Below, one piece after another: positions 9,299-23,013 of a stretch of 64,000 nucleotides of DNA. Source of the stretch: Microgenomates group bacterium ADurb.Bin219 (GTDB lineage: Bacteria > Patescibacteriota > Microgenomatia > UM-FILTER-40-11); NCBI GenBank assembly GCA_002069945.1, contig MWCH01000002.1, positions 15,164-79,163 of the forward strand. Reading direction: 5' to 3'. A program made the position numbers and the translations under genes. Position 1 is the stretch's first letter. The number at the start of each line of letters is the position of its first letter. The notes below the pieces were generated by a model that saw nothing but the letters and a program-made list of their open reading frames with translations, ran no database searches and was not told the DNA's origin.

Positions 9299-12200
9299 TT
9301 GATATTAAATAATCGTCTATTTAAACTAAAGAAGATGAGTTGGAACAGTATTGTCAATTATCCCAAATATCTAAAAGAGAAACTAAACTTATCAACAAAA
9401 ATCTTTCGGAAACAAAAAACTTCCCTTTATGCTCTTTTACTTCTTCTTTTTTTTCTGCCTATCTCCATCTTGGTTGTCAAAAAATCAACCTGGCTTGTTC
9501 CAAAAGCACAAACTCCCAATCAATCGGCTGACCCCGGCAACGCTTACGATTTTATTCCCGACATAATTTTCGGCAAGGCGGGATTTGGCGAAATTGTTCC
9601 CAATCAAGTTACGGGAAACCGGGTTTTTTTGCCGGCCGGAATTACGGTTGATAGAGGAACCAGCCCAAACCGAATTTACGTTTGGGACAGCGGCAACAGC
9701 CGAATCCTCGGTTTTACTTCATTGGGAACTTGCGAGAGCGGTGCCAACACCGGCCGGCCTTGCACAAACAATCTTGATTGCCCCTCTTCCGTTTGCCAAA
9801 TAAATTCAACCAAAAATGCGGATCTGGTTTTCGGCCAACCCGATCTGTTTCATGCCGCCTGTAACGGAGATAGTACCATTAAGGCCAACCCCTCCGCTGC
9901 CACTTTATGCTCCCAACGCCATCCAAACCAAATAAGTTTGATTGAAGGACCGGAGCCAAACAATATGGCCGTTGATCAAAACCATAATCTTTATGTCGTC
10001 GATAAATGGAATAATCGGGCTTTAAAATACAACGATCCTTTCAATCCCGATAAAACAGAAGGAAAAGGAGATAATATCGCCGACCAGGTTTGGGGCCAAC
10101 CGGATTTTTTTAGCCGCAGCTGCAACCGGAACGAAAACGACGATTGCCATATAGTTGCCAACCCAACCAGCAACAGTCTCTGTTTAGATTGCCATAATCT
10201 TAATGTTATTAATAGCGAGTTTAATGCCAGCGGCCTGGACGTTGAACCGGACGGATCTCGTCTCTGGATTGCCGACGGAGCCAATCATCGGGTTCTTCGT
10301 TTTCCTGCAGATTCCGGTGATGCCGACTTGGTTATCGGCCAACCAGACTTTTCTTCAAGAAATCCAAACGGCTGTGTTTCTTACCCCAATTTACCGGCAG
10401 AAGATGCCCTTTGTCGGCCAAAAGTGGCCAAATATAGTCCTTTAACCAATCAGTTATATATTCTTGATTGGGCCGATGAAATCAACCTTTTCCGAATTTT
10501 AATTTACGACCCTCCTTTTACCAACAATAAAATGGCTCCTTCGGAAATCATTTACGGAGGGCCAACCGACCAATACCGCGATTTGATTGTTAACCAGGAA
10601 CGTTCCGATTGGAGCTACCACCGGCTCAGCCGTCCGCTGGGATTGGCATTAGATCCTTTTGCTCCCAGTGCTTTTTGGTTAACGGACAATAATCACAACC
10701 GGGCTTTGTATTTTCAAAAAATTGCCGGCAAGTGGCAACCAACCAAGGTTTTACCTCAGCCAAATTTGGAAAGAATTCAGAAGTTCGGCTCTTTCAACTG
10801 CTCAAACTTACCGGAAGAAGAAAGATGGCGGTGCTTTGTCAACCCGAGTGGCTCAGCCGGTATTGATTCCGAGGGAAATATTTATCTGGAATCTAACTTC
10901 CATGAGCAGATTTTGCGATTTTCAGCACCGATTCCCACGCCCCTAGCGGAAGCAACCGGCGACGAGGGAATCGGATACGCAGCGGAAAATGTCTTTCTTA
11001 AACAACAGGAAAATGCTTCCGCCGACCAGATGGTGGGAATAAATTTTATCGGTCCGGCAGGGATACATACTCCCAACGCCGCCTTGACGGTCAACTATAC
11101 AGGCGGGGCAAAACAGCTTTTCGTCCAAGACAAATTCCGAGTGCTTGTCTGGAATGATTACACCAATAAAGTTTCCAATTCTCCGGCAGACTATGTTCTT
11201 TTTCAAAACGATTTTAACAGTCAGCTTACCAACGTAAACAACCAGGCCAATAATTGGCTGGTAAGACAAATGGTTGCCGATTCTCAAGGAAGAATCTGGA
11301 TGGCAAAAGAAAGCCAGGGAGTTTATGTTTTTCAGGGCCCGATTAGTACTTCCCCAGCCACCCCTACGATTATTCCCTTAACCTTAAATCTTAAAAACAG
11401 TTCCCGACCAATCAATCTCGGCTTGATTTCCGGATTGGCTTATGACGAAAATGAAGATTGCCTCTGGGTTGCCGATGCTGACAATTACCGGGTTGTCAGA
11501 ATTAATCACCCTCTTGATCCCAACCAAAGAATTGTTGATCTGGTTTTGGGACAACCCAACCTGGACAGTATTAAACCAAACCGATCCAAAGACGACCGAT
11601 CCGATCCTCAAAACTGCCCCAATATGCAACCGGACAGTTTTGCCTCTTTAAGCAAAATTTACCTGGATAATTTTAAAAATCTTTATGTTGTTGATGCCAC
11701 TCATGAATTGGCTTGGTGCAGCAACAACCGACTGATTGAATACGACAAGACTGATTTGACCGCCAAGTTGGAAGAAGGAAAAGTTTTTCTTGCCGACAAT
11801 GAACTGGTCCCCAAAAGAGTTTATGGCCGATCCGGGTTTACCACCAGCGAAAAAAATAAATATTCTGATGAAAATAAACCCAATGCGCCCTTCTCCATCT
11901 CTTTTACTTCCGACAACAGAATGCTGATCGGCGCCGAGGGTTATGGCAATAAAAACTATAAAAGAATCTACCTGCTCAATAATCCTCTGCCCAATTGCCA
12001 AACTTCCTGCCGGGTGGATGAGGACTATCTTGAACTGGCGCCGGGAGCAATTCCCCAATTTGGCTTATCTTATCTTATTCCCCTTTCGGTGAGCCAGCCG
12101 GACGAAGTTTTTTGGGACAAATCAAATAATCTGATTGTTCTTGATCATGCCTGGAGCCGGGTTCTCTTTTTTAAGACTCCCCTTCCTCCTGCGCCTACTC

Positions 12201-13096
12201 CAACAAATGTGCCCAACTGCGCCACCGTCGGCAGAAATTGCACCAGCGTTCCTTGTTGCACCAGTCAAGGGACTGTCTGCACGAAAATTACTTCTTCCTA
12301 TTATCAATGCCAAATTCCCGGCGCTTCTTCCCAAGAAGGAAACCAAACTCCCACCGACGTACCCAACTGCGCTACTGTCGGCAGAAATTGTATAAGCACT
12401 CCTTGTTGTGCCAGCCAAGGAACCGTTTGTACTCCGATTGTCCCTAACTACTCACAATGTTTAGTTCCCACCGTGGCAACCGGCACGACAACCCCAACCC
12501 GAGTTCCGACTTCAAGCCCAACCCCAACCATAATTCCAACACCAAACGCACCTTCCCCGACTTCCGGCCCCATCTCGGGACCAATAATCAAAGATTTCAG
12601 CTCTGTAGCGGATACTTTTATTTATAACTCTGCCGCAAGCGAAAACAGTAATTTCGGCAGCCAGGGAAACCTTAGAACTTCTTTTTGGTCAAGCACAGAC
12701 ATCCGTCAAAGCTTAATAAAATTTGAATTGTCCGAGATTCCGGTATCGGCAAACGTTACTTCAGCAATTCTTAGCCTTGAATCGGTTGCCTGGGGAGGAA
12801 AAGGAACTACCGTCAGTCTTTACAAATTATTGCAAGACTGGGACGAACTGACGGTCACCTGGAAAAATAAACCCAATCAAGACACCCTTCTTTTGGGGAG
12901 CTTCAATGTAACTTCTTTGGGTAAACACCAGCTCAATTTAACTCCGATTGTCCAATCCTGGATTAATAACCCCAATACCAACAAGGGACTTTTGTTAAAA
13001 ATTGAGGTTAAGGGGTTTGATCTTTACTTTGCCTCAAGAGAAAACAACAATCTGACAAAAAGACCGAAGCTGACGGTTACCTATACGATTCCGTAA
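9299..13096 (+). CDS. Large secreted NHL-repeat (beta-propeller) protein with two tandem Cys-rich mini-modules, a Pro/Thr linker and a C-terminal beta-sandwich-like domain (DNRLRE-like)
   Basis: N-terminal hydrophobic anchor/signal. Repeated YVxDxxNxRhxxF-type NHL motifs (NRILGF, NNRALKY, NHRVLRF, NHNRALYF, NYRVVRI). Two ~37-aa C-x6-C-x4-CC-x6-C-x9-C modules, then a PT-rich linker, then a domain ending ...ASRENNNLTKRPKLTVTY. Real start may be the internal Met at 9335. Confidence 0.6.
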   Translation: MILNNRLFKLKKMSWNSIVNYPKYLKEKLNLSTKIFRKQKTSLYALLLLLFFLPISILVVKKSTWLVPKAQTPNQSADPGNAYDFIPDIIFGKAGFGEIVPNQVTGNRVFLPAGITVDRGTSPNRIYVWDSGNSRILGFTSLGTCESGANTGRPCTNNLDCPSSVCQINSTKNADLVFGQPDLFHAACNGDSTIKANPSAATLCSQRHPNQISLIEGPEPNNMAVDQNHNLYVVDKWNNRALKYNDPFNPDKTEGKGDNIADQVWGQPDFFSRSCNRNENDDCHIVANPTSNSLCLDCHNLNVINSEFNASGLDVEPDGSRLWIADGANHRVLRFPADSGDADLVIGQPDFSSRNPNGCVSYPNLPAEDALCRPKVAKYSPLTNQLYILDWADEINLFRILIYDPPFTNNKMAPSEIIYGGPTDQYRDLIVNQERSDWSYHRLSRPLGLALDPFAPSAFWLTDNNHNRALYFQKIAGKWQPTKVLPQPNLERIQKFGSFNCSNLPEEERWRCFVNPSGSAGIDSEGNIYLESNFHEQILRFSAPIPTPLAEATGDEGIGYAAENVFLKQQENASADQMVGINFIGPAGIHTPNAALTVNYTGGAKQLFVQDKFRVLVWNDYTNKVSNSPADYVLFQNDFNSQLTNVNNQANNWLVRQMVADSQGRIWMAKESQGVYVFQGPISTSPATPTIIPLTLNLKNSSRPINLGLISGLAYDENEDCLWVADADNYRVVRINHPLDPNQRIVDLVLGQPNLDSIKPNRSKDDRSDPQNCPNMQPDSFASLSKIYLDNFKNLYVVDATHELAWCSNNRLIEYDKTDLTAKLEEGKVFLADNELVPKRVYGRSGFTTSEKNKYSDENKPNAPFSISFTSDNRMLIGAEGYGNKNYKRIYLLNNPLPNCQTSCRVDEDYLELAPGAIPQFGLSYLIPLSVSQPDEVFWDKSNNLIVLDHAWSRVLFFKTPLPPAPTPTNVPNCATVGRNCTSVPCCTSQGTVCTKITSSYYQCQIPGASSQEGNQTPTDVPNCATVGRNCISTPCCASQGTVCTPIVPNYSQCLVPTVATGTTTPTRVPTSSPTPTIIPTPNAPSPTSGPISGPIIKDFSSVADTFIYNSAASENSNFGSQGNLRTSFWSSTDIRQSLIKFELSEIPVSANVTSAILSLESVAWGGKGTTVSLYKLLQDWDELTVTWKNKPNQDTLLLGSFNVTSLGKHQLNLTPIVQSWINNPNTNKGLLLKIEVKGFDLYFASRENNNLTKRPKLTVTYTIP
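12209..12460 (+). repeat. Imperfect tandem duplication (~100 nt units) encoding two Cys-rich modules inside the NHL protein
   Basis: VPNCATVGRNCTSVPCCTSQGTVCTKITSSYYQCQ and VPNCATVGRNCISTPCCASQGTVCTPIVPNYSQCL, ~75% nucleotide identity. Confidence 0.8.
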
Positions 13097-13105
13097 ATCA
13101 AATTT

Positions 13106-14089
13106 TTACACCAGTCCCATTTTTTCTTTGGCCTCTCGGAGTGTTTCTTTAGCAATTATTGAGCAATAGTCTCTTCCTTCCTCCAATATTTCCTCGACTA
13201 AGTTGGAATTTTGTTCGTAAAATTTTCTTTTTTCCTGAATCGGTTTGATTTCTTCGTAAATCGCATTGGCCAAATCATGTTTGAGATCCTGATAACGGAT
13301 TCCTTCATGGAGGTACTGGCTTTCGTATTTCATTCTGATGTCCTTGCCCTCGAAAAGTTCAACCAAGGTCAGCAAATTAGCTACACCGCCCTCTTGGGGT
13401 ACTTCCGTACCCTTGCCGGTATCTGTCGGCGCGCCGGCCAATCTTTTTCTAATCATTTCCAAATCATCGGTCAGTAGAATGTAACTGCCTTCAATCGACT
13501 TACTCATCTTGCCTTCCCCTTTTAAAGAAGGCACATAAGCGCCTTCCATCAAATAAGCCTGCGGCTCGGGAAAGGTTTTGCCGAACATCAAATTAAATTT
13601 CCGGGCAAATTCGCGCGTAATTTCTATATGGGGAACTTGATCTTTACCAACCGGCACCGTATCGGCTTTATAAAGCATAATATCCGCCGCCATTAAAACC
13701 GGATAATACAAAAGTCCCATGTTGAGATAACCCGGATTTTCCGCTTTTTTGTCTTTATAAGTCGGCAGATCTTCCAATCTGCTTACCGGAAAAATTGTTC
13801 CCAGTAAATAAGCAAGCTCCAGGTGTTCCGGTACTTGCGACTGGATCATTAAATGACACTTTTGAGGATCAAGCCCCGCCGCCAATAAATCCAAAGCCAA
13901 ATTTCTAATTTGATTCGGCAAATCCTTGGGTTTGTAAGGAGTGGTGATTCCATGTAAATCAACCACGCCGTAAATGCAGTCAAATCCCGGCTTGTTTTGC
14001 AGGTCAATTTGACCCTTGATGGCTCCCAGATAATTCCCGATATGAATCAGGTTTGTCGGTCTTAATCCGGAAAAAACTCGTTTTTTCAT
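13106..14089 (-). CDS. trpS: Tryptophanyl-tRNA synthetase
   Basis: Class I HIGH-region (LIHIGNYLGA) and KMSKS motifs, 327 aa. Confidence 0.9.
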   Translation of the reverse strand: MKKRVFSGLRPTNLIHIGNYLGAIKGQIDLQNKPGFDCIYGVVDLHGITTPYKPKDLPNQIRNLALDLLAAGLDPQKCHLMIQSQVPEHLELAYLLGTIFPVSRLEDLPTYKDKKAENPGYLNMGLLYYPVLMAADIMLYKADTVPVGKDQVPHIEITREFARKFNLMFGKTFPEPQAYLMEGAYVPSLKGEGKMSKSIEGSYILLTDDLEMIRKRLAGAPTDTGKGTEVPQEGGVANLLTLVELFEGKDIRMKYESQYLHEGIRYQDLKHDLANAIYEEIKPIQEKRKFYEQNSNLVEEILEEGRDYCSIIAKETLREAKEKMGLV

Positions 14090-14092
14090 AAG

Positions 14093-14165
14093 CAGGGATG
14101 GAGGGAATCGAACCCCCGACCGACGGTTTTGGAGACCGTTGCTCTACCAACTGAGCTACATCCCT
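14093..14165 (-). tRNA. tRNA-Trp (anticodon CCA)
   Basis: Hand-folded cloverleaf: 7-bp acceptor AGGGATG/CATCCCT, D arm GCTC/GAGC, anticodon stem ACGGT/ACCGT with loop CTCCAAA, T loop TTCGATT. Sits 3 nt upstream of trpS on the same strand; no encoded CCA. Confidence 0.8.
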
Positions 14166-14173
14166 TTAAAAAG

Positions 14174-14247
14174 TAGCAGGGGCGGGACTCGAACCCGCGA
14201 TCTTTGCGTTATGAATGCACTGCTCTAACCAGCTGAGCTACCCTGCC
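14174..14247 (-). tRNA. tRNA with CAU anticodon (Met or Ile2-type); anticodon stem imperfect
   Basis: Acceptor GGCAGGG/CCCTGCT (G1.U72), D arm GCTC-AGCTGGTTA-GAGC, T arm GCGGG-TTCGAGT-CCCGC all canonical. Anticodon loop TTCATAA, but the anticodon stem GTGCA/CGCAA has only 3 Watson-Crick pairs (A31.C39 and G27.A43 mismatches). Possibly a degenerating copy. Confidence 0.5.
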
Positions 14248-14354
14248 TGGTTTAAATTTGAAATACAGAAGCATTATAACAACAATAAAACTCCGCTTCA
14301 ATTAAAGCGGGGTTCTCGCTTTTATGAATATCGTTATCCCGATCGTATAGAAAG

Positions 14355-14384
14355 AAAAAACCGCCAAATTTATGGCGGTTTTTT
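14355..14384. terminator. Bidirectional intrinsic-terminator-like hairpin
   Basis: aaaaaa-CCGCCA-aattta-TGGCGG-tttttt: 6-bp GC stem flanked by an A-run and a T-run, between the tRNA-like element and the CAU tRNA. Confidence 0.55.
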
Positions 14385-14395
14385 AATAACTCATG

Positions 14396-14465
14396 TTGCG
14401 GGGCCGGGAGTCGCGCCCGGCCTGGAAGATTATGAGCCTTCCGTGCTACTGTACACTACCCCGCA
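14396..14465 (-). ncRNA. GC-rich tRNA-like element with CUCAUAA anticodon loop and non-canonical T-loop
   Basis: Folds as a cloverleaf: acceptor TGCGGGG/CCCCGCA (U1-A72), D arm GTGT-ACAGTA-GCAC, anticodon stem GAAGG/TCTTC with loop CTCATAA, T arm CCGGG-CGCGACT-CCCGG (lacks the T54-psi55 TT). ~70% GC in a ~40% GC genome. Overlapped by the spurious N-terminal extension of ORF 14393..15286. Confidence 0.4.
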
Positions 14466-14512
14466 CAACGAAAACTATTTTAACAAAAAAATGTTTAAAC
14501 CGCAAGGAAGTG

Positions 14513-15286
14513 ATGCTGGATTTTCTTGGGAAAACTTCCTATAATTTTTTTATGGATCCGAAACTGCCCATTCGCTCCTCTACCCAAGAACAGGTTCCCC
14601 TGGAAAATATCAGGGATAACCTTTTTATTCTCAAGGACGGCAATTGCGGCGTAGTTCTTTCCGTTTCCGCCTTGAATTTCAGCTTGCTTTCCGAAACCGA
14701 ACAGGAAGCGACAATTTATGCCTATGCGGCCCTGCTTAACTCGCTGACTTTTCCCATCCAGATACTTACCCGCTCAAAGCAAAAAGATATCTCCTCTTAT
14801 CTGGCGATTCTCCTTGAGGAAGAAAATAAACAGAAAAATCCCCTTCTTCAAGGACAAATTAAAAAATACCGCAAATTTGTTGAAGAGATGATTAAAAGAA
14901 ACAACGTCCTCGATAAAGATTTCTACGTCGTTATCCCCTTTTCTCTTTATGAACTGGGGGCGCCGCAGATTATCGGGAAAGGCCTGATTTCCCCAAAAAA
15001 ATCTTTGCCTTTTTCCGAAAATTATATTGTTGAAAAGGCCAAGATTAATCTTGGCCCCAAAAAAGACCAATTGATCCGTCAATTCGGCCGCATCGGCCTG
15101 GTGGCCAGACAGCTCAATACCCAAGAACTGACGGCTCTTTTTTACGAAATTTATAACCCTAAGCAAGCGGAAAGACAAAAAATTTCGGCCGACAATCAAT
15201 ATTCTTCTCCAATTGTTCAACCCGCTCCGTCAGGCCCCCGGCTAAAACTCAATAGACAAACAATTTCCACCAACGGCGCCAGTTAG
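14513..15286 (+). CDS. Hypothetical protein (no recognisable motif)
   Basis: Long ORF with coding-like composition. The track start at 14393 overlaps the tRNA-like element, so an internal Met at 14513 (or 14552) is more plausible. Confidence 0.45.
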   Translation: MLDFLGKTSYNFFMDPKLPIRSSTQEQVPLENIRDNLFILKDGNCGVVLSVSALNFSLLSETEQEATIYAYAALLNSLTFPIQILTRSKQKDISSYLAILLEEENKQKNPLLQGQIKKYRKFVEEMIKRNNVLDKDFYVVIPFSLYELGAPQIIGKGLISPKKSLPFSENYIVEKAKINLGPKKDQLIRQFGRIGLVARQLNTQELTALFYEIYNPKQAERQKISADNQYSSPIVQPAPSGPRLKLNRQTISTNGAS

Positions 15287-15611
15287 ATATCGGCCGGTCT
15301 TCCGTATCAGCTAGGAAATTGGGCGGAACTATTGTCGGCAAAATAATCACTTTTTCTCCCTCTCTGGTCATTCCCAGTTTCTCCCTGGCCTCTTCTTCAA
15401 TAAAATCCTTTCCTTGAACCTTTTCCAGCTTCGCCCTAAGTTCCCGGTTTTTTTCTTCCAACTCCAAAATTTCCGTTTCTAAATCCACCAGCTTCCGACC
15501 AGCTTTCCAAGTAACATAAATCTGTCTAGAAAAATTCACTATAAGGCTAAACAAAAAAATTATTACCAGGCTGTAAAAAAAATTATTCTTCATATTATGG
15601 GTTGACATCAT
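15249..15611 (-). CDS. FtsB/DivIC-like septum formation initiator (TM + coiled coil)
   Basis: N-terminal TM helix followed by coiled coil LELEEKNRELRAKLEKVQ...DFIEEEAREKLGMTREGEKVI, typical of the FtsB/DivIC family. Confidence 0.55.
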   Translation of the reverse strand: MMSTHNMKNNFFYSLVIIFLFSLIVNFSRQIYVTWKAGRKLVDLETEILELEEKNRELRAKLEKVQGKDFIEEEAREKLGMTREGEKVIILPTIVPPNFLADTEDRPISNWRRWWKLFVY

Positions 15612-15620
15612 TCCTGCTTC

Positions 15621-16505
15621 GTGTTATCATTCTCCAATATGAATGAGCCGACCACCATTACTTCTGCCAAATTGGAATTCACGGAAACTCTTAAAAAACA
15701 AAAAAGAGCTTCTGCGACTATTCTAGCATACGGCAATGATATCGCTCAGTTGGAAGCTTTTTTGGCCCAAAAAGGCATTTCCCAAATTTTAGCCATTAAT
15801 CAAGCGGTTTTGGATGAGTTTAAGGCACAAATGGAAAAGGACGGCTATACGGCCAAATCCATCTCCCGCAAGATAAATTCCATTAAAACTTTTTTCCGGG
15901 TTTTACAAAACGAAGGCGTTATTAAAGATAATCCGGCTACTTTATTGGCTCACCCCAAATACGAAACCAAACCCCCGAGAATTCTTTCCAAGGTCGAATA
16001 CCGAGCCTTAAGAGACGCCTGTAGAAACGATGTCCGTATTTCGGCCATCGTTGAATTGATGCTCCAAACCGGATTGCGTATCAGCGAAGTCGCCAATCTG
16101 AAAATTGAAGATTATAAAAACGATTCACTTTTCATTGCCGCCTACGAATCCCATCCGGAAAGAGTTATTCCCTTAAACAAAGCGGCCAAAACCGCCCTGG
16201 AAAGGTATTTAAGCCAAAGGCCGAAAGACATCAAGGAAAAAGCAATTTTTGTGACCAAAACCGGCCGCTCTTTCTTAATCAGAAATATCCGCTCCGCCAT
16301 TGAACGCTACTTTAGCCAGGCCGATCTTAAAAACGTCAAAGTTAACGATTTGCGTCATACCTGGGTATTCTATCAACTGGACGCGGGCGTTTCCGTAGCG
16401 ACGATCGCCAAACTGGCCGGCCACAAAAGAGTTTCCACGACGGAAAAATATTTGGAACTAATCGGCAGTAAAAAAGAGCAAGCGGCTAAACTGGAAGAAT
16501 TGTAA
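15621..16505 (+). CDS. Tyrosine-type site-specific recombinase (XerC/XerD-like integrase family)
   Basis: 294 aa with catalytic residues in GLRISEV ... LRHTWVF ... AGHKRVSTTEKYLEL (R..HxxR..Y). Confidence 0.8.
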   Translation: MLSFSNMNEPTTITSAKLEFTETLKKQKRASATILAYGNDIAQLEAFLAQKGISQILAINQAVLDEFKAQMEKDGYTAKSISRKINSIKTFFRVLQNEGVIKDNPATLLAHPKYETKPPRILSKVEYRALRDACRNDVRISAIVELMLQTGLRISEVANLKIEDYKNDSLFIAAYESHPERVIPLNKAAKTALERYLSQRPKDIKEKAIFVTKTGRSFLIRNIRSAIERYFSQADLKNVKVNDLRHTWVFYQLDAGVSVATIAKLAGHKRVSTTEKYLELIGSKKEQAAKLEEL

Positions 16506-16605
16506 ACCTTCTTTATTTTTGATTGCCTCCCTCCCCTTCTTTGTTTAACTAATTTTTAATGGCAGAATAGAAATATTGGGAGGTTAGGATTTTATTTATA
16601 AATAG

Positions 16606-16646
16606 TAGGCTCGCTTGGGATCGAACCAAGGACCCTTTCTTTATAA
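16606..16646 (-). pseudogene. 3' half (anticodon-loop TTATAA through 3' end) of an interrupted tRNA-Ile(UAU)-like gene ('outer' tRNA)
   Basis: Minus-strand reading TTATAA-AGAAA-GGGTC-CTTGG-TTCGATC-CCAAG-CGAGCCT-A. Its anticodon-stem 3' strand AGAAA and acceptor 3' strand pair perfectly with the 5' half at 16794..16828. Confidence 0.7.
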
Positions 16647-16682
16647 TTTGCTTCGCAAAGTATATTGAATTTCGGACTAAGG

Positions 16683-16754
16683 TGGACCAGCTTGGATTCG
16701 AACCAAGGACTCCGTCTTTATAAGAGACGTACTCTACCGCTGAGTTACTGGTCC
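16683..16754 (-). tRNA. tRNA-Ile (anticodon UAU), intact, located inside the insertion that splits the outer tRNA
   Basis: Cloverleaf: GGACCAG/CTGGTCC acceptor, D arm ACTC-AGCGGTA-GAGT, anticodon stem CGTCT/AGACG with loop CTTATAA (anticodon TAT), T arm CTTGG-TTCGAAT-CCAAG, discriminator A then CC. Confidence 0.75.
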
Positions 16755-16793
16755 AAATTCATTATTAAATTCATTATAATTATTAAATTCATT
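16755..16793. repeat. AT-rich 12-nt tandem repeat (aaattcattatt x ~3) inside the tRNA-disrupting insertion
   Basis: ccaaattcattattaaattcattataattattaaattcattataag read directly from sequence. Confidence 0.8.
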
Positions 16794-16828
16794 ATAAGAG
16801 AAATGCTCTACCACCGAGCTACGAGCCC
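16794..16828 (-). pseudogene. 5' half (5' end through anticodon loop) of the interrupted outer tRNA-Ile(UAU)-like gene
   Basis: Minus-strand reading GGGCTCG-TA-GCTC-GGTGGTA-GAGC-A-TTTCT-CTTAT(AA), followed by the insertion. TTATAA is present at both junctions (16641..16646 and 16792..16797). Confidence 0.7.
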
Positions 16829-16902
16829 CCCAAAATTAGCCTAATTTTAACAGATTCGAAGCAAAAAGGAAAAAATCAGGTAGCCAGTATCAAATATCCG
16901 AG

Positions 16903-19296
16903 CTACAGTCTCGCTCTTTGCGCAATCTCCGCCTCTACCACTGCCTTGGAACGGCCATACTTCAACCTTGACAGCTCTTTTACCATCTCGGACATTTTCG
17001 GATTCTGTTGCTGCCAAATCGGCGGCATGTCTTGTTTCATGGTCATCGAAAAAGCCGGCACCGGTTCGTTACCGACCAAAGTCTTGACATAAGCATTGTA
17101 AGCTTCAATATTAAGCAAGTCCGATTCGGAAAAGGTCGGCGTATATTCGTGTTGCAAATATTGAGCGTCGGTAACGCCTACCCGAAAGCTGATTTTGGTG
17201 CCGCAGTTGCCGAAAACCGCGTTTTTGACTTCGTCATCCATTTGGCCGATAAATTGGTTGGCCACACAAAGACCCAAATGAAACTTTCTGGCCTCGGAAA
17301 GAATTTGGGCAAAATCGGGAGTGGCAAAGTTTTGAAACTCGTCAACGTAAAGATAAAAATCTTTTCTTTGGGCTTCGGGGATATCCGAACGACTCATCGC
17401 CGCCATCAGGATTTTCGGAACCAAAACCAAACCCAAAAAACTGGAATTTTCTTCCCCAATCTGGCCTTTGGCCAGATTGATAATCAAAATCTTCCCCTCA
17501 TCCATCACTTTCCGAAAATCAAAGGAGGATTTAGACTGGCCGACAATATTTCTCATCATCCGGTTGGTGACGAAACGACCAAACTTGGAAACAATGTAAT
17601 CCAAAACCTCGGATTTATGAAAATCGGCGGTCTGGGCAATCTGGTCGGTCCAATAACGCCGCACCATCGGATCCTGAACCTTGGGCAACAATTCTTGAAC
17701 AAAGTTCTGGTCTTGAAGCGCCCGCATTACTTCCACAAAAGTTGCTCCCGGTTCGCACATTACCGTTAACATTGCGTTTCTGATTGCGTGCTCAAACCGC
17801 GGCCCGATAATTCCGGTTTTATAAGGATCGTAAAGTTTATACATCAAATTGATAATCGCCGAGGCGATAAAATGTTTTTGGTCCTCGCTTTGGGCTTCAA
17901 TCAAATTCAAACCCATCGGTCTTTCCGTATCAGCCGGCGAAAAATAAATCACATCCTCTGCTCTTTCCGGCGGAATCAGTTGCATCACCATTTCAAAAGT
18001 GTCATGAGGATCAATAAAACAAAAACCCTTTCCGGCTTTCATATCCTGATACATCATTTTGGCCAAGAGTTGAGATTTTCCGGTTCCGGTGGCGCCAATA
18101 ATGTAAATATGGCGCATCCTGTCCTTGTCCTGAATATAAACCGGCACCTCAATCCCCCGAAAGGCGCTTTTTCCCAAATAAAGTCCTTCCTTGGGAATTT
18201 GCTGAGGAGCCGGCGCCCTTTTGGCATTCAGCCAAAAAATAAAAGGTGTTTCCACGGTTTTATTGGGCAAGTGAAAAATTCCGGCCAATTCTTCGGAAGA
18301 TAAAATTATTTTGTTGCGGAAAAAATAGAGCTGCGGCGGATAACGGTAAATAAAATCGGTCATAAATAACTTGTTTAAACGGATTTTCCGACTTTTAAAG
18401 CCGTTTTGATCGGAGTTAAATTGCTCAAACGCCGCCTTGAGGTTAGCCAAATGCGCTTTTGCCGACTCCATCGTCGGCGAAGAAACAACCATCTTCAAAC
18501 TGACTTCAAAACCAGGCTTAGTGCATTTATTTTCGATTGCTTCCAATTGCTTCGGATCGGTTTTATAAGTTGCCTTTTCCGGATCGGATTCGGTTTTTTT
18601 GGTTTTGGCCAAAAAGCGTTTTCCCGAAGAGGCCCATTTCCGATTAGCCGGCGTAAATAAAAGCTGAATTGCCGCTCCTTCTCCGGGTTGCATCTTGGCC
18701 AAAGCGGAAGTTATTAAGGCCAGCGGGTCGGTCGGCAAATCCTTATAAACTTTAATCGGGAAAAAAGGAGCCGATCGGAATTGAAGCTCGGAAAAAGCGA
18801 CTTTGCCTTTTTCGGAAAAAATATTGTATTCTTTGGCTTCCTGAATTTCGGCTCCGGGATAAGCTCCATGAATCTGTTTTTCCACCATGTCCCTTAATTT
18901 CCCGGGGACGGAAATATAAAAACGAACATCTTCGGGTAAACCGACTATCTCAAAAGAAAGAAAGTCCTGGGATTTTAAAAATTCAAAGCGACCGCCCTTT
19001 CTTAACGAGGAAAAGGCGGCAAACATTTGTTCGGCCGCGTCAATTTTGATCTCGTTGTCTTTGGGAACGGCGACCTGAAGCAAAACATAACCCAAAGACT
19101 TTTTTTCCCGAAAACGATTCCGCCACCAAACAACCAGAAAATAACCGGAGATAAAAAGAAAAATCAGAAAAAATACCCCGAAGGTTAAAATCTCCAAAAC
19201 CAATTGGAAATTGGCTAAAAATAGGTTGTCCAAAAAATTGGAAACTGGTTCACTGGGCGGCATTTTCTTCCTTTCTGAAGACGGTCTGTTTGTCAA
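16903..19296 (-). CDS. Membrane-anchored VirB4/VirD4-superfamily ATPase (type IV secretion / conjugation-type AAA-like, TraG-D_C-like C-terminus)
   Basis: N-terminal TM helix; Walker A IIGATGTGKSQLL followed by FIDPHD; C-terminal DEFQNF...RKFHLGLCVANQ Walker B/arginine-finger-like region, as in T4SS coupling proteins and VirB4. Confidence 0.55.
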   Translation of the reverse strand: MTNRPSSERKKMPPSEPVSNFLDNLFLANFQLVLEILTFGVFFLIFLFISGYFLVVWWRNRFREKKSLGYVLLQVAVPKDNEIKIDAAEQMFAAFSSLRKGGRFEFLKSQDFLSFEIVGLPEDVRFYISVPGKLRDMVEKQIHGAYPGAEIQEAKEYNIFSEKGKVAFSELQFRSAPFFPIKVYKDLPTDPLALITSALAKMQPGEGAAIQLLFTPANRKWASSGKRFLAKTKKTESDPEKATYKTDPKQLEAIENKCTKPGFEVSLKMVVSSPTMESAKAHLANLKAAFEQFNSDQNGFKSRKIRLNKLFMTDFIYRYPPQLYFFRNKIILSSEELAGIFHLPNKTVETPFIFWLNAKRAPAPQQIPKEGLYLGKSAFRGIEVPVYIQDKDRMRHIYIIGATGTGKSQLLAKMMYQDMKAGKGFCFIDPHDTFEMVMQLIPPERAEDVIYFSPADTERPMGLNLIEAQSEDQKHFIASAIINLMYKLYDPYKTGIIGPRFEHAIRNAMLTVMCEPGATFVEVMRALQDQNFVQELLPKVQDPMVRRYWTDQIAQTADFHKSEVLDYIVSKFGRFVTNRMMRNIVGQSKSSFDFRKVMDEGKILIINLAKGQIGEENSSFLGLVLVPKILMAAMSRSDIPEAQRKDFYLYVDEFQNFATPDFAQILSEARKFHLGLCVANQFIGQMDDEVKNAVFGNCGTKISFRVGVTDAQYLQHEYTPTFSESDLLNIEAYNAYVKTLVGNEPVPAFSMTMKQDMPPIWQQQNPKMSEMVKELSRLKYGRSKAVVEAEIAQRARL

Positions 19297-19642
19297 ACAT
19301 CTTAATCAAGCGGCGGCACCATTCCGCCAACCAGCGGACCGATTCGGAAACTTTTTGTTTTAAACCAAAAAGAAACGTTGCCTCGCTTATCGGCAAAACA
19401 ATCTGCGTCGGTTGGGCGGACGGCGCGGTTACTAAAGTTTGGCCGTAATCATCAGTAATCGGTTTGGCCAAGTAAATCTCCTTTTCAATTTTTTCAATAT
19501 AGGGCTGGACCTCTTTTTCGATTTCTTTTTCCTTTTCTTCAACCACCGGAAAGCGCTCCTCTTCTTCATTAAAAAGAGAGTTCAGAACTTCCTTCTCTTT
19601 ACTCATTGATCCGGCCGGAGACGAGGTAACGGGCAGTGCCAT
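19250..19642 (-). CDS. Hypothetical small acidic protein (overlaps start of ATPase gene by 47 nt)
   Basis: 130-aa ORF; Glu/Lys-rich low-complexity N-terminal half; no recognised motif. Confidence 0.35.
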   Translation of the reverse strand: MALPVTSSPAGSMSKEKEVLNSLFNEEEERFPVVEEKEKEIEKEVQPYIEKIEKEIYLAKPITDDYGQTLVTAPSAQPTQIVLPISEATFLFGLKQKVSESVRWLAEWCRRLIKMFDKQTVFRKEENAAQ

Positions 19643-19684
19643 ATATTTATAATATAGTATAAATTGACCGGGAAATAAAGGTAA

Positions 19685-19724
19685 GGAGAGATTAAAAAAA
19701 CCGACCGGAAAAATTAATCTCCCC
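19685..19724. terminator. Hairpin (GGAGAGATTAA / TTAATCTCCCC) overlapping the nrdG stop codon
   Basis: 11-bp inverted repeat with one mismatch and an 18-nt loop; read directly. Confidence 0.35.
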
Positions 19725-20448
19725 TAATTTCAGCCGTAGGAATAATTTTTTGGACAATTTTCAAAGATTGCTTTAACTCTCCGGACGTAAACGGTTTCAG
19801 CTCACTAAACCGAAGATCCAAACAATTAGTCGGTCGGAAGTTCTGCAAAACCCAACGATAATTTACAATTTTTAATTTACAATTTTCAATTAAAGATCTT
19901 ATCTCGCCCGCCATTTGAATTAAAATCTTTTCATTGTGCAACCCCGGCACGACCGTGGTCCGAAACTCACAACCTATACCACTTTTTAAAATCAATTCCA
20001 TTGAAGATTTAACATTTGACATTTGACATTTGACATTGATGAAATTTTGATAATTATCAAAATTTCCCTTGTAATCCATGGCTACAAAATCAATTAATCC
20101 GTCTTTCAGTAATCGGGTGATTGTTTCCGGCTTGCTCCCGTTGGTTTCAATCATTGTCAAAAAACCCATTTTTTTAAGCTCTTTTAAAAAACCGGCCAAC
20201 TCCGGCTGCAGGGTCGGTTCCCCTCCGGTAACGACAATGGCATCAACCCATTTTTGCCTTTTTTTCAGGTCGGCGAAAATTTCCCCTTCTTCAAAGAAGG
20301 TCAGCTTAGGCTGCTTTTGGGGATCGGACAAGTCGGAGTTGTGACAAAACGGGCAACGGAAATTACAACCGGGAACAAAAATCACCGCCGCAATTTTTCC
20401 CGGCCACTCAATTAAGGAAGTTTTAAGATAGCCGGCTATTTGAACCAT
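19714..20448 (-). CDS. nrdG: Anaerobic ribonucleoside-triphosphate reductase activating protein (radical SAM)
   Basis: CNFRCPFCHN radical-SAM CxxxCxxC cluster near the N-terminus, 244 aa; sits downstream of nrdD. Confidence 0.8.
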   Translation of the reverse strand: MVQIAGYLKTSLIEWPGKIAAVIFVPGCNFRCPFCHNSDLSDPQKQPKLTFFEEGEIFADLKKRQKWVDAIVVTGGEPTLQPELAGFLKELKKMGFLTMIETNGSKPETITRLLKDGLIDFVAMDYKGNFDNYQNFINVKCQMSNVKSSMELILKSGIGCEFRTTVVPGLHNEKILIQMAGEIRSLIENCKLKIVNYRWVLQNFRPTNCLDLRFSELKPFTSGELKQSLKIVQKIIPTAEIRGD

Positions 20449-20592
20449 AATTAAATTTAAAGCGAGAAGTTTGAGATGAGAAGTTAGAAGTTGAAGAGTA
20501 AGACGAAATGTCCAAAAACTTAACTCCCACTTCTTTTAACTTTATCCGAATCCAACCTCCCGCCTCTCTCTTCCGTCTTCAGATTTAAAAAA

Positions 20593-20736
20593 TCATTTTT
20601 TGCCAATAATGTAGGTCTTTCTCTGTTCAAACTCCTGCTGTTTGCCGTCATTCCATTGCGATATCGGTCGGAGATAGCCGACAATACGGGAAAAAATCTC
20701 ACAGGGTTGCCTTTTAAGAATTTTGGTTTGGTCCAT
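20593..20736 (-). CDS. 47-aa stand-alone peptide corresponding to the NrdD C-terminal glycyl-radical tail
   Basis: Not in ORF track (<60 aa). MDQTKILKRQPCEIFSRIVGYLRPISQWNDGKQQEFEQRKTYIIGKK carries the class III RNR glycyl-radical signature RxxGYL...WNxGKxxExxxR. Strong RBS AAAAAGGGAGGTTGT-ATG; lies 72 nt after the nrdD stop. Confidence 0.55.
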   Translation of the reverse strand: MDQTKILKRQPCEIFSRIVGYLRPISQWNDGKQQEFEQRKTYIIGKK

Positions 20737-20808
20737 ACAACCTCCCTTTTTACTTAATTAAAAAATAATCTTTATTTTTTACCCCGTCTCTATCTCTATC
20801 TCTTACTT

Positions 20809-23013
20809 TTACTCTATCTCCACCCGGTATCCTTCTTTCTCCAATTCTTTCTTTTGTCTGATTAGATCTTCGTCACATTTGGGACAAAAACTAAAACCAC
20901 CCTTAAGATACCCGTGACGGGGACAGATACTGAAAGTCGGCGTCAGGGTAAAATAAGGCAAATGAAAATTTTCGGCGATCTTTTTAACCGCCGTTTTGAC
21001 CGTTTGGATATCGGAAAGGCTTTCTCCTAAAAAACCATGCAAAACCGTTCCTCCGGTATATTGGCATTGAAGTTCATCCTGATGTTCCAAGGCTTCAAAA
21101 ATATCGGCAGTATAATCAACCGGCAAATGAGTTGAATTGGTATAATACGGTTCTGCTTTTTTCTCCTTAACCGCCCGGTTGTTGGCAAAAATTATCTCCG
21201 GATAACGTTTCCGATCCTCGCGGGCAAAACGATAAGAAGTTCCCTCGGCCGGAGTTGCTTCCAAATTAAAAAGCTGGCCGGTTTCTTCTTGATAACGACC
21301 GATTCTCTCCCTCATAAATTTCAAAACTTTCAAGGCAAAGCTGCGTCCTTTTTTGGTCGCGATGTTTTCCCCCAAAAGATTTAAACAGGCTTCGTTCATA
21401 CCCACTAAACCGATGGTGTTGAAATGGTTTTTCCAATATTCGCCGAAGCGCTCTTTGATTGGCGTCAAAAAAACCTGGGAATAGGGATAAAGTCCTTTTC
21501 CGGTAAAATCTTCAACCACTTTTCTTTTGATCATCAAGCTTTCCTTGGCCAAATCCATCATTGCGGCCAGATTTTGAAAAAAATCCTTTTCTTTCTTGGC
21601 CAAAAAACCAAGTCTCGGTAAATTAATCGTCACTACCCCAACGGCTCCGGTCAAAGGATTGGCGCCAAAAAGTCCGCCGCCTTTTTTCCTCAATTCCCGA
21701 TTGTCCAAGCGCAATCGGCAACACATACTGCGCGCGTCTTCGGGGCTCATATCGGAATTAATAAAATTGGAAAAATAAGGAATGCCGTATTTTCGGGTTG
21801 CTTCCCAAAGATTTTCCAAATCCGGATTGTCCCAATCGAAATCCTTGGTGATATTAATGGTCGGGATCGGGAAAGAAAAAACCCGGCCCTGGGCGTCGCC
21901 TTCCAACAAAACCTCGCCAAAAGCACGGTTAAAAAGATTCATTTCTTTTTGAAAATCACCATAGGTCTTTTTTTGCGGCTGGCCGCCGACAATGACCGAT
22001 TCTTTCGCCATCATCTTTGGAACCTTCAAGTCCAAAGTCACGTTGGAAAAAGGCGTTTGAAAACCGACCCGGGTCGGCACGTTCATATTAAACATGAACT
22101 CCTGCAAGGCCTGTTTGACCTCAAGATAATCCAATTTGTCGTAATAAATAAACGGCGCCAATAAGGTATCAAAATTTGAAACCGCCTGAGCTCCGGCCGT
22201 TTCTCCCTGAAGGGTATAAATTAAATTAACCAATTGGCCGAGCGCGGTCCGAAAATGTTTTGGTGGACGTGAATTCAGTTTTCCGGAAACGCCGCCGAAA
22301 CCTTTGACTAAAAACTCGCGCAAATCCCATCCGCAACAGTAAGCCGCCAAAATCGCCAGGTCGTGGAGATGTAAGTCGCCGTTTAAATGAGCATCCCCAA
22401 TCTTCTTAGGATATATTTGATTTAGCCAGAAATTTGAAGAAACCAAGCTGGCCACGTGGTTATTCAACCCCTGGAGAGAAAAAGTCATATTACTGTTTTC
22501 CTTAACCCGCCAATCCAGCTTTCCCAAATAGTTTTTAATCAGCTCGTCCGAATCCACCAGGCTTTCAATGCTTCTGATTTTGTTATGCAGCTCCCGGTAA
22601 AGAATATAAGCTTTAGAAACCGCCACCAGCCGATTTTTAATCAGAACCTCTTCAACAATATCCTGAATCTGTTCTACCCCGGGAATTAAATGACCGTCAA
22701 AGCGCCGATCGAGGATTTTACTGACCTCAAGTGCCATTTGCCTGGCTTTCGGCAAATCCACCTCTCCCACCGCCCACATTGCTTTGGAAATGGCAATAAA
22801 AATTTTTTTCCGGTCAAAATCAACAATCCGACCGTCCCTTTTGCAAATTTGTCTCACTGGTCGGGAAATCTTATTTGCCGTCTCGTTTAGTTTTGATTTA
22901 TTTTTAAAACTATTTTTCATCATTCTCCACAAAAAAACCTGCCCCTGTATCTTTTGTGAAGATATTATCACTCTTCCCCACTGAAGCCTGTCAACCGGTA
23001 ATTTTAATATCAA
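20809..23013 (-). CDS. nrdD: Anaerobic ribonucleoside-triphosphate reductase large subunit (class III), lacking its own glycyl-radical tail
   Basis: N-terminal ATP-cone (RDGRIVDFDRKKIFIAISKA), large NrdD body, C-terminal Zn-ribbon-like TPTFSICPRHGYLKGGFSFCPKC. Ends ~20 aa after the ribbon with no RVxGYL motif. Confidence 0.8.
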   Translation of the reverse strand: MILKLPVDRLQWGRVIISSQKIQGQVFLWRMMKNSFKNKSKLNETANKISRPVRQICKRDGRIVDFDRKKIFIAISKAMWAVGEVDLPKARQMALEVSKILDRRFDGHLIPGVEQIQDIVEEVLIKNRLVAVSKAYILYRELHNKIRSIESLVDSDELIKNYLGKLDWRVKENSNMTFSLQGLNNHVASLVSSNFWLNQIYPKKIGDAHLNGDLHLHDLAILAAYCCGWDLREFLVKGFGGVSGKLNSRPPKHFRTALGQLVNLIYTLQGETAGAQAVSNFDTLLAPFIYYDKLDYLEVKQALQEFMFNMNVPTRVGFQTPFSNVTLDLKVPKMMAKESVIVGGQPQKKTYGDFQKEMNLFNRAFGEVLLEGDAQGRVFSFPIPTINITKDFDWDNPDLENLWEATRKYGIPYFSNFINSDMSPEDARSMCCRLRLDNRELRKKGGGLFGANPLTGAVGVVTINLPRLGFLAKKEKDFFQNLAAMMDLAKESLMIKRKVVEDFTGKGLYPYSQVFLTPIKERFGEYWKNHFNTIGLVGMNEACLNLLGENIATKKGRSFALKVLKFMRERIGRYQEETGQLFNLEATPAEGTSYRFAREDRKRYPEIIFANNRAVKEKKAEPYYTNSTHLPVDYTADIFEALEHQDELQCQYTGGTVLHGFLGESLSDIQTVKTAVKKIAENFHLPYFTLTPTFSICPRHGYLKGGFSFCPKCDEDLIRQKKELEKEGYRVEIE

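Follow-up and report, generated by a model that had tools for sequence, protein, structure and literature searches.

On the minus strand of a 64,000-nt stretch of chromosomal DNA from a Microgenomates (CPR) bacterium, here called the window, an intact tRNA-Ile(UAU) gene interrupts a second tRNA-Ile(UAU) gene in the middle of its anticodon loop. Such nests recur in many independent genomes, and the nested-tRNA habit is widespread in CPR bacteria and apparently undescribed; we found no earlier description of nested tRNA genes in the literature. The reading that we favor, and that on balance is probably correct, is that the locus is a self-nesting replacement cassette, in which a working inner gene sits between the relic halves of an outer one.

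The nesting of one tRNA-Ile(UAU) in the anticodon loop of another was proposed in a preliminary description of this DNA, and ARAGORN, Rfam and the rebuilt outer cloverleaf all bear it out. ARAGORN called the inner gene as tRNA-Ile(tat) at 16681-16754 (minus strand), and this gene scored 69.1 bits with the Rfam tRNA model, whose gathering score is 29. Removal of 16647-16797 rebuilt a 73-nt outer gene, which ARAGORN, used for the tRNAscan-type check suggested with the preliminary description, called as a tRNA-Ile(tat) cloverleaf with 4/4 arms paired, in line with that description. This call, together with the calling of 24/26 rebuilt outer genes elsewhere as tRNA-Ile(tat), ruled out a chance cloverleaf. 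The inner and outer tRNAs differ at 18/72 positions, i.e., they have the 75% identity first estimated. Folded as a whole, the stretch gave two nested cloverleaves as its minimum-free-energy structure (z = -2.6). The 398-nt intergenic region is identical across six independent assemblies (two from NCBI, one each from JGI and ENA, and two from Logan), which rules out an assembly artefact.

Read along the minus strand, the locus starts with an extended -10-like motif, TGTTAAAAT (16844-16852), read from the sequence 15 nt upstream of the outer 5' half. This motif is the sole promoter-like element preceding the window's nest; a generic promoter scan of the window did not flag it. The same TGyTAAAAT motif stands before the outermost 5' half, or before the single tRNA, at L011, L013, L098, L093, L128 and L131. 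The outer 5' half (nt 1-35; GGGCTCGTAGCTCGGTGGTAGAGCATTTCTCTTA, 16795-16828) matched an nhmmer half-profile over model positions 1-34 and enters the cloverleaf once rebuilt. At position 14, where A is nearly universal, it has a G; the relatives L121 and L083 retain A14. The inserted cassette follows (16644-16794), with a length of 151 nt when the junction is set at 35/36, the junction common to all examples. The 145-nt insertion first described, plus one TTATAA copy, is equivalent. Direct copies of TTATAA lie at 16641-16646 and 16792-16797. The cassette's 5' spacer (16755-16794) consists of TAA and then a tandem 18-nt unit that holds TATAAT-like boxes (2.1 copies counted from the TTATAA at 16797). 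The AT-rich tandem repeat noted earlier is therefore real; Tandem Repeats Finder placed it at 16761-16797 with a best period of 18 (2.1 copies, 100% matches), and the period of 12 given at first (1.9 copies) is an alternative reading. The last 7 nt of the spacer, TGAATTT (16755-16761), form the 5' strand of a predicted closing stem, P1, whose 3' strand is AAATTCA (16666-16672), both strands being assigned by duplex prediction and fold. Enclosed by P1 is the intact inner tRNA (16683-16754, acceptor GGACCAG/CTGGTCC; ARAGORN and Rfam), presumably the working AUA decoder, the acceptor stem and T arm of which match the single resident tRNA-Ile of relative L129. The 3' junction is preceded, at a distance of 3 nt, by a small hairpin, H (TTTGC-GAA-GCAAA, 16647-16659; z = -2.7), which includes the mini-hairpin motif GCGAAGC and is identical in L083 and L121. 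The outer 3' half (nt 36-73; TAAAGAAAGGGTCCTTGGTTCGATCCCAAGCGAGCCTA, 16606-16643) matched an nhmmer half-profile over model positions 1-39; it has T in place of C72, which yields G1·U72.

Upstream of the outer tRNA is a VirD4/TraG-like ATPase ORF (16903-19296, minus strand); it had been said to begin 75 nt from the tRNA, but it is the 3' end of the ORF that lies there. tRNA-Ile(tat) stands beside the ATPase at 49/80 related loci, which makes this arrangement the clade norm. A genomic UAU anticodon for isoleucine was called uncommon in bacteria, and this holds for bacteria at large, where it is rare (PMC3575796), but not for the window's clade, in which UAU is the rule. Comparison with relatives yielded single tRNA-Ile genes at the same locus; none of 94 full genes was the window's outer allele (anticodon stem TTTCT/AGAAA) in uninterrupted form.

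The nest architecture was seen in about 7/49 species-representative loci and in about 35 metagenome contigs (35/37 metagenome matches); nests are present at L083, L009, L013, L011 and L130. Nesting reaches up to three levels around an intact gene, as in L102, which retains in addition a fourth, degenerate 5' fragment. The cargo was Ile-in-Ile in 35/35 nests, with a search pattern that did not demand the same isoacceptor. None of 43 tRNA-Met(CAU) genes in the same contigs had flanking halves, and loci lacking a called tRNA-Ile held no tRNA-Ile gene with an insert but without an inner tRNA. L115 is a tRNA-Cys locus whose inner copy differs little or not at all from the outer one. Viral contigs contained no real nest or cassette sequence, the single match (L132) being a chance match inside a GC-rich coding region, and a phage or plasmid donor was ruled out on that basis.

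The position of the break is constant. Where both junctions could be read, 26/26 junction intervals include 35|36, and in L009, L114 and L126 this is the only junction allowed. The flanking repeat is variable. In the window, L083, L106 and L121 the insert lies between copies of a 6-bp palindrome, and outside the window family the repeat is 0, 1, 2, 3, 4 or 5 nt long. The TTATAA repeat pointed out in the preliminary description is thus present in the window but is not a general property or att core, repeats in the other nests being 0-6 nt long; a constant target-site duplication (TA, TATA or TTATAA) is ruled out on the same ground. Inserts across the family are ~100-250 nt long, 72 nt of which are tRNA, and spacers of 7-40 nt and 16-175 nt separate the complete inner tRNA from the host halves. 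The ends of the cassette are conserved in structure. A nest's own 5' and 3' spacers form a predicted duplex of -14.1 kcal/mol on average versus -6.7 for mismatched pairs (p = 1.4e-7), and the closing-stem sequences vary between nests, yet stay complementary to their own 5' spacer. Free-standing tRNA-Ile genes have no leader-trailer pairing (p = 0.71), and the closing stem is therefore not a general pre-tRNA processing stem. A role as a clamp that aids folding of the inner tRNA in spite of competition from the outer halves was also rejected, by a partition-function test (native 0.65 versus 0.78 for shuffled spacers, p = 0.9). A 3'-junction hairpin is present in 17/20 nests (mean z = -2.65) and ends 0-5 nt from the 3' junction. 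We note that the cassette ends hold their structure while their sequence changes, which implies a selective agent.

The outer copies decay, and the locus turns over at the strain level. Stacks with 5' halves only are found at L011, L093 and L109, the outer 5' half of L111 is truncated, and the outer copies of L091, L101, L104 and L120 bear D-loop or T-loop insertions; damage is greatest at the outermost levels. In the close relative L121, the outer copy has G1-A72 and G3·U70 versus one change in the inner copy, and a comparison of the window with L121 showed 0 changes over 79 nt of spacer and 4 over 72 nt of outer halves. In most outer halves the acceptor and anticodon stems are still perfectly complementary though their sequences differ between loci, and many outer 3' halves retain an encoded CCA; demonstrably dead outer copies look equally intact. 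L102 and L122 have identical flanks and differently arranged nests, with chimeric halves in L122 and, in L102, a 12-nt tract of clustered substitutions adjoining the junction. The window's clade contains nests, 5'-only forms and five different single alleles, and L128 and L129 carry mosaic single alleles. The same cassette was found in different outer frames, and vice versa, and unrelated contigs share spacer modules that accompany different inner tRNAs. In L127, few or no differences separate the inner from the outer copy. Between the same genomes, tRNA-Ile(UAU) is far more divergent than the neighboring tRNA-Met (p = 7e-19).

If the locus is a self-nesting replacement cassette, then a stem-closed cassette of 151 nt, with a complete tRNA-Ile(UAU) of its own, would have broken a resident tRNA-Ile(UAU) gene apart between nt 35 and 36. 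Transcription would begin at the promoter ahead of the outer 5' half and run through that half, and ordinary 5' and 3' tRNA processing would free the inner tRNA as the cell's AUA decoder. The outer halves would be non-functional relics, already mutating in the window and destined for eventual deletion. As the cargo brings with it a fresh target, namely an intact anticodon loop, the innermost copy could be re-invaded by the family to give Russian-doll nests, and repeated nesting would drive a fast replacement cycle of tRNA-Ile(UAU) alleles. We infer that only the inner copy is functional and that the cassette has spread at the DNA level; the likeliest route is recombination that copies a filled site into another tRNA-Ile allele, the tRNA halves serving as homology arms. 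Among the three explanations offered in the preliminary description, a tiny tRNA-carrying mobile element fits best. Several observations run counter to the favored reading. The 0/79 spacer changes against 4/72 in the outer halves are unlike neutral decay that spares only the inner tRNA, intact outer stems would also be expected from selection for a spliced outer tRNA, and cassette ends that hold their structure call for a selective agent. In addition, we found no free or donor form of the cassette. No recurrent transposase, reverse transcriptase or ligase adjoins the nests, the neighbor clusters of 33 nests being housekeeping synteny, and a Pfam scan of ~40 window ORFs revealed no relevant enzyme. 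Four nests have a small GIY-YIG ORF 0.7-4 kb away, which has a very weak match to group I intron endonucleases (E = 8e-4).

With repeats of 0-6 nt and with terminal complementarity that is conserved between families whose terminal sequences are unrelated, the nests are not typical DNA transposons or MITEs. IS200/IS605-type (PATE-like) single-strand elements duplicate no target, insert 3' of a fixed short target, and have subterminal hairpins, a conserved right-end cleavage sequence and a Y1 transposase in the genome. The nests need no duplication and have a right-end hairpin, but their right-end sequences are not conserved, and no transposase was found near the nests or among the window ORFs scanned. 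The nests resemble in structure the intervening sequences (IVSs) of bacterial 23S and 16S rRNA genes: in both, a hairpin loop of a structural RNA gene carries the insert at its apex, the paired ends of the insert prolong the host helix, and the insert is sporadic among close relatives. IVSs are removed by RNase III without religation and the host RNA works in pieces, but an anticodon-cut tRNA could not decode. The nests differ in having as host a tRNA, which would lose its function if fragmented, and in that their cargo is a tRNA. IVS-type cassettes, with a 23S_rRNA_IVP ORF between long inverted repeats, adjoin the tRNA-Ile locus in L081, L083 and L130.

The best placed of the rival explanations, although we regard it as unlikely, is that the insert is intron-like: the whole nest would be transcribed, the inner tRNA excised, and the outer halves linked at 35/36 by a mechanism that needs no ribozyme, so that one transcript would give two or more working tRNA-Ile molecules. 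Possibly, RNase P- or RNase Z-like enzymes would cleave at the foot of the closing stem and 3' of the hairpin, and an RNA ligase would seal the ends. The intact, complementary outer stems of most nests, the encoded CCA kept in many outer 3' halves, and the sole promoter upstream of the outermost half in short-spacer nests would all fit such a scheme, as would the junction geometry, which is kept while sequences vary, the 5' junction abutting the 5' base of the helix and the 3' junction following the hairpin. Against it, outer copies are often truncated, without a 3' half or loop-inserted while the locus is kept, and A14 is gone from the window's outer copy. An intron need not bring the same isoacceptor, which 35/35 nests carry. 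Also, we know of no protein-dependent tRNA splicing pathway in bacteria. The unconventional intron put forward in the preliminary description is judged less likely than the mobile element. The further proposal that every nest level is matured, CPR bacteria having ribozyme-independent tRNA splicing that recognizes the stem/hairpin junction at 35/36, seems doubtful to us; RNase P, RNase Z and an RNA ligase might make up the pathway.

[quoted passage not shown] 2026; PMC13011429), and the fact that these genuinely spliced introns favor the same position speaks for an intron-like insert. The nests share with them the phylum, the kind of host gene, the insertion in mid-anticodon, inside the anticodon loop at 35/36, and an interrupted gene that standard annotation misses. 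Unlike these introns, the nests have no catalytic core, no terminal G and A35 rather than U before the 5' junction, and their cargo is a full copy of the host gene; where group I introns have U at the last exon position, end in G and are at least ~200 nt long, the window's insert follows A35, ends in A, as against variable last letters in other nests, and is 151 nt long with its 72-nt tRNA included. The Rfam Intron_gpI core (P3-P9) had no match in the window at the gathering threshold, none in 16450-16950 at E<=1, and none at nine other nest loci at E<=0.1. A group I or II intron or other ribozyme was ruled out, no Rfam family matching the inserts at permissive thresholds. A hammerhead-like three-way junction was rejected as well, since its strands would be 4, 0 and 3 nt long and the conserved core is missing.

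Archaeal tRNA genes are interrupted by introns removed by bulge-helix-bulge splicing, and intron transposition occurs in Thermoproteales. Like archaeal tRNA introns and split tRNAs, the nests are interruptions of loops, sometimes at several positions, with related inserts in different tRNA genes and paired exon-intron ends. In contrast to them, the host is bacterial and no bulge-helix-bulge can be formed. When the junctions of L114, L126 and the window were drawn by hand, they formed either one unbroken helix or a three-way junction whose internal loop is 4 nt/3 nt, rather than two 3-nt bulges about a 4-bp helix, and the fold agrees; for L114 and L126 in particular, the failure to draw the motif weighs against an intron-like insert. 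No bulge-helix-bulge splicing endonuclease or ligase was found among the ~40 window ORFs scanned against Pfam. To our knowledge, and in our literature searches, archaeal tRNA introns have not been reported to contain a tRNA.

A repair accident is a further explanation, and an improbable one. A break in the anticodon loop would have been patched by microhomology-mediated templated copying of tRNA-Ile and its flanks, with homologous recombination then shuffling the pieces. The variable 0-6 nt junction repeats resemble microhomologies, and the (nearly) identical inner and outer copies of L127 and of the tRNA-Cys locus L115 look as they would after self-copying; the chimeric halves of L122, the clustered 12-nt substitutions of L102 and the mosaic single alleles of L128 and L129 would be products of shuffling. 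Left unexplained are the constant break at 35/36 and the recurrence of spacer modules with different inner tRNAs in unrelated contigs. Nor does repair account for the self-complementary insert ends and the usual 3' hairpin, the flanks of normal tRNA-Ile genes being unpaired.

We give little credence to the idea that site-specific integration followed by excision, catalyzed by the adjacent Xer-like or another integrase with TTATAA as the att core, left a scar. Integrative elements reportedly target tRNA genes and leave tRNA gene fragments behind (Reiter 1989; Williams 2002). The nests resemble such elements in their anticodon- or T-loop target, in the accumulation of orphan tRNA fragments and in the compensated disruption. 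Anticodon stem-loops are classical integrase targets (Williams 2002, cited in PMC9897764); in the window, L083, L106 and L121 the insert has its 6-bp palindromic flanking repeat, and in the window a tyrosine recombinase gene ends 100 nt away. Integrative elements, however, fuse their own partial 3' copy to the host half at the crossover, carry an integrase and duplicate a fixed core. The nests insert a whole tRNA that is spaced from both halves, have no linked integrase and, outside the window family, lack an identical core of ~6-8 bp; many have a 0-1-nt repeat, too short for the overlap region of a tyrosine recombinase, and the 151-bp element is too small to encode an integrase. The window's recombinase is a housekeeping-like XerC/D-like gene (best matches XerD/XerC) adjoining ftsB/divIC. 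The suggested link between recombinase and nest did not hold up: the gene has the same position in the single-tRNA-Ile relatives L128, L129 and L131 and is absent from most nests, a Xer-like gene lying near 8/33 nest loci, all of one clade. Repeat lengths and gene linkage largely refute a Xer-mediated att scar.

Equally improbable is the idea that the retained halves are silent cassettes that recombine with the expressed inner gene and diversify tRNA-Ile(UAU), e.g., in escape from tRNA-targeting toxins, for there is no evidence of a toxin or of directional conversion, and the points in its favor, i.e., the unusual divergence of tRNA-Ile(UAU), the chimeric and mosaic alleles, and the persistence of intact-looking halves in very compact genomes, are equally expected from selfish turnover.

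Interrupted copies and orphan halves escape tRNA annotation in CPR genomes. Splicing of the outer copies, if it takes place, would be the first protein-dependent tRNA splicing in bacteria; if every level is matured, nested genes would be several tRNAs encoded in one another, and the same machinery would also remove the D- and T-loop hairpin insertions. Either way, the 35/36 position shared with the group I introns of the phylum points to something special in how Patescibacteria handle the anticodon loop. If the self-nesting replacement cassette is the correct reading, the nests would represent a new kind of selfish or semi-selfish genetic element, ~100-250 bp long and without a protein gene, that hits an essential single-copy tRNA gene and repays the damage with its own copy. 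Such an element would rebuild its own target and therefore lead to recursive nesting and rapid allele replacement of one tRNA, which would be a concrete explanation for the hypervariable tRNA-Ile(UAU) of CPR genomes.

The nested tRNA of the preliminary description is confirmed. The minus strand of the window at 16606-16828 reads, in order, a tRNA 5' half (GGGCTCG...TTTCT-CTTA), an insert, a complete tRNA, and the matching 3' half (TAA-AGAAA...CGAGCCT-A). ARAGORN placed the complete inner tRNA-Ile(tat) at 16681-16754 (minus strand; Rfam, 69.1 bits) and, when 16647..16797 was deleted, called a tRNA-Ile(tat) of 73 nt in which every arm pairs, so that the outer halves do rebuild a cloverleaf, as had been claimed. 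Inner and outer paralogs, put at ~75% identity, measured 75%, and both copies of TTATAA were found; the AT-rich tandem repeat is also present (16761-16797, minus strand), with an 18-nt unit in 2.1 copies. Folding of the entire nest gave two nested cloverleaves (z = -2.6). Six independent assemblies, each from a separate project, share one and the same sequence for the full 398-nt intergenic region with the nest, which rules out an assembly artefact.

The ATPase gene, said to begin 75 nt away, instead lies at 16903..19296 (minus strand), with its end 75 nt upstream of the tRNA; its product matches a protein of 'Microgenomates group bacterium ADurb.Bin219' at 100% identity. A Pfam scan of ~40 of the window's 57 ORFs of at least 150 aa found ordinary CPR chromosomal genes, i.e., FtsH, RecF, Fpg, penicillin-binding proteins, glycolysis enzymes, NrdD/NrdG, LeuRS and TrpRS among others, and no TilS among the ORFs scanned. 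Of 80 species-representative loci retrieved by way of the ATPase, 49 have a tRNA-Ile(tat) immediately downstream of that gene; the reported rarity of a genomic UAU anticodon thus holds for bacteria at large (PMC3575796) but not for this clade, where UAU is the rule. The gene order NrdD, NrdG, small ORF, VirD4/TraG-like ATPase, tRNA-Ile(UAU), Xer, FtsB, TraC-like protein and two tRNA-Met is kept in many CPR genomes, and the window adds tRNA-Trp and TrpRS (9299-26261); between ATPase and Xer the cargo varies by genome (an IVP ORF, a 377-aa ORF, or a nitroreductase). In the window's Trp-Met-Met cluster, the third tRNA with a CAU anticodon (14395-14465, minus strand) scores only 44 bits (Rfam tRNA), with its anticodon at position 32. 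Also on the minus strand, an ORF at 26448-27593 joins an Rce1-like CAAX protease domain to a weak HEPN_RnaseLS match, and a Fic/DOC family protein is encoded near the window start (1434-2561).

About 7 of 49 species-representative loci (L-numbers denote loci or contigs compared with the window) have the nest architecture or its fragments: a full nest in L009 (Gottesmanbacteria), a nest interrupted by the contig end in L013, two stacked orphan 5' halves in L011, and fragments in L007, L033, L046 and L055. A search pattern requiring nothing more than the 5' part of an anticodon loop, then a D arm too soon, matched 37 metagenome contigs and no viral contigs. Two of the 37 were ordinary Ile-Val tandems; the remaining 35 were nests or 5' stacks, Ile-in-Ile in every case. 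Two-level nests occur in L104, L110 and L119, and L102 has one intact gene within three nested levels, together with a degenerate 5' fragment as a fourth. The 43 tRNA-Met genes of the same contigs all lacked flanking halves. Among relatives of the window, L130 has the nest inverted, and L083, whose ATPase is 80% identical to the window's, has the same outer tRNA and hairpin but differs in inner tRNA and closing stem. L125 has a complete tRNA-Ile inside the T loop of another, and in L102 (10620-10700) and its L122 equivalent an intact tRNA-Val(GAC) is closely preceded by the 5' fragment of a tRNA-Val-like gene that has a hairpin inserted behind the GG of its D loop. In L115 (13990-14180) a 5' fragment and a 3' part of another tRNA-Cys flank a tRNA-Cys(GCA) gene, and the closing stem is 20 bp long; nesting may therefore extend beyond tRNA-Ile(UAU).

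Every locus was parsed with one profile for each half of the gene (nt 1-35; nt 36-end). All 26 evaluable junctions fit a break at 35/36, and 3 of them permit no other position. Insertion is position-specific at 35/36, with ends conserved in structure and variable in sequence; direct repeats at the junctions measure 0, 1, 2, 3, 4, 5 or 6 nt, and no fixed duplication flanks the insert. Beginning 0-2 nt from the junction, the 5' spacer has a strand complementary to the 3' spacer (the closing stem), and duplexes of a nest's own spacers averaged -14.1 kcal/mol versus -6.7 for mismatched pairs (Mann-Whitney p = 1.4e-7). Closing-stem sequences are unrelated from family to family, e.g., TGAATTT/AAATTCA, CAAACTT/AAGTTTG, GTGAAAATTT/AAATTTTCAC and CCCGCCTGCC/GGCGGGCAGG. 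Free-standing tRNA-Ile genes showed no leader-trailer pairing (p = 0.71). After the closing stem, 17 of 20 nests have a small hairpin whose end lies 0-5 nt short of the 3' junction (mean z = -2.65); the hairpins of L103 and L104 differ by a compensatory pair. Given closing stem and hairpin, the junction in RNA or single-stranded DNA would be a helix or three-way junction, within which the seven anticodon-loop bases are predicted to form a 4-nt/3-nt internal loop. The proposal that the closing stem merely aids inner tRNA folding gained no support when tested.

By position and phylum, the closest known system is the group I intron at 35/36 of Patescibacteria tRNA-Asn/Asp (PMC13011429), but the nests are without its defining catalytic core. 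Because the inserts match no Rfam family except tRNA, group I or group II introns are excluded or unlikely, as are an archaeal-type intron, since no bulge-helix-bulge could be drawn at the nest junctions, and a classical transposon or MITE, for want of a fixed duplication. By architecture, rRNA intervening sequences are closest, sharing loop-apex insertion and a closing stem. IVS-type cassettes, each a 23S_rRNA_IVP/bAvd-family ORF between ~35 bp inverted repeats, lie between the ATPase and the tRNA-Ile locus, directly beside the latter, in three relatives of the window (L081 5390-5840; L083 5495-5797; L130 4889-5600); in L130 a long inverted repeat encloses both the IVP ORF and the inverted nest. 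Integrative elements that target tRNA genes are alike in logic, compensating for the gene they interrupt, but the nest cassette brings a whole gene and no integrase. No protein gene was consistently linked to nests, no relevant one was found among the scanned window ORFs, and viral contigs yielded no donor of the cassette. A small GIY-YIG (UPF0213-like) ORF, with a very weak match to a group I intron endonuclease family (E = 8e-4), lies 0.7-4 kb from four nests (L097, L102 11829-12101, L111, L120).

Several observations say that the inner copy is the working one. The cargo is the same isoacceptor as the host gene in 35/35, a rule that destruction of the host gene would require and its splicing would not; the tRNA-Cys locus looks analogous. 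The 3' side is wholly absent in L011, L093 and L109, the outer 5' half is truncated in L111, and the outer D or T loop has extra hairpin insertions in L091, L101, L104 (level 2) and L120, all with an intact inner gene; in multi-level nests damage grows toward the outer levels. The outer copy has A14G and G1·U72 in the window and G1-A72 and G3·U70 in its close relative L121, while their inner genes differ at one position. Such hairpin-rich insertions, in the D loop or at nt 53/54 of the T loop, occur in several outer copies (L091, L101, L111, L104, L120), and A14-to-G (GCTCGGTGG) is common to two unrelated outer 5' halves (window 16815 and L098/L112). Most outer stems retain perfect complementarity, as they should if the outer copies were genuinely spliced, and this counts against their being relics. 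Copies that are certainly dead have equally good stems, however, so intactness mainly reflects the young age of the insertions. The cargo rule speaks against splicing, which we consider rather unlikely.

L102 and L122 have 100% identical flanks and different nests, with differences of one level, chimeric 3' halves, and four clustered substitutions in the 12 nt beside a junction. One cassette occurs in different outer frames, and one frame with different cassettes (L091, L101, L105, L111). The window's own clade (ATPase 79-88% identical) includes nests (window, L121, L083, L130), a 5'-only form (L093), and five different single alleles (L081, L082, L128, L129, L131). L128 (4889-4961) and L129 (4890-4962) share nearly identical flanks and the acceptor stem GGACCAG/CTGGTCC, yet elsewhere in the tRNA they diverge (anticodon stem, variable loop, T arm): the tRNA-Ile allele is mosaic. 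Because parts reassort, L102 has a conversion-like tract and alleles are mosaic, filled sites most likely spread by DNA-level recombination in which the ~35-nt tRNA halves serve as arms. With the anticodon loop made whole again by the cargo, the innermost copy would become the next target. That the inner gene works, the outer halves are relics and spread is at the DNA level seems to us a somewhat better than even proposition. For the origin of nests and the upkeep of stem and hairpin, one candidate is a nuclease or ligation step specific for structures in single-stranded DNA or RNA, and another is microhomology-mediated templated repair; repair accidents with no dedicated element at all are unlikely. 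The suggestion of a tiny tRNA-bearing insertion stands, but the recombinase scar with the anticodon loop as att core is very improbable, given the variable repeat length and a Xer gene (best matches XerD/XerC, adjoining ftsB/divIC) in housekeeping synteny.

Between the same genome pairs, mean identity was 71% for tRNA-Ile(UAU) versus 78% for the neighbouring tRNA-Met(CAU) (Wilcoxon p = 7e-19), and where Met was at least 95% identical, Ile was just 71-77% identical. In the literature searched, which covered part of the journals, nested tRNA-in-tRNA genes are not described, and self-nesting tRNA cassettes are apparently an undescribed class in CPR bacteria. In sum, the window locus is typical of this widespread class, if slightly aged, and, given the strain-level differences and the Ile-specific divergence, the nest appears to be an intermediate, still visible, in a rapid cycle of replacement specific to tRNA-Ile(UAU).
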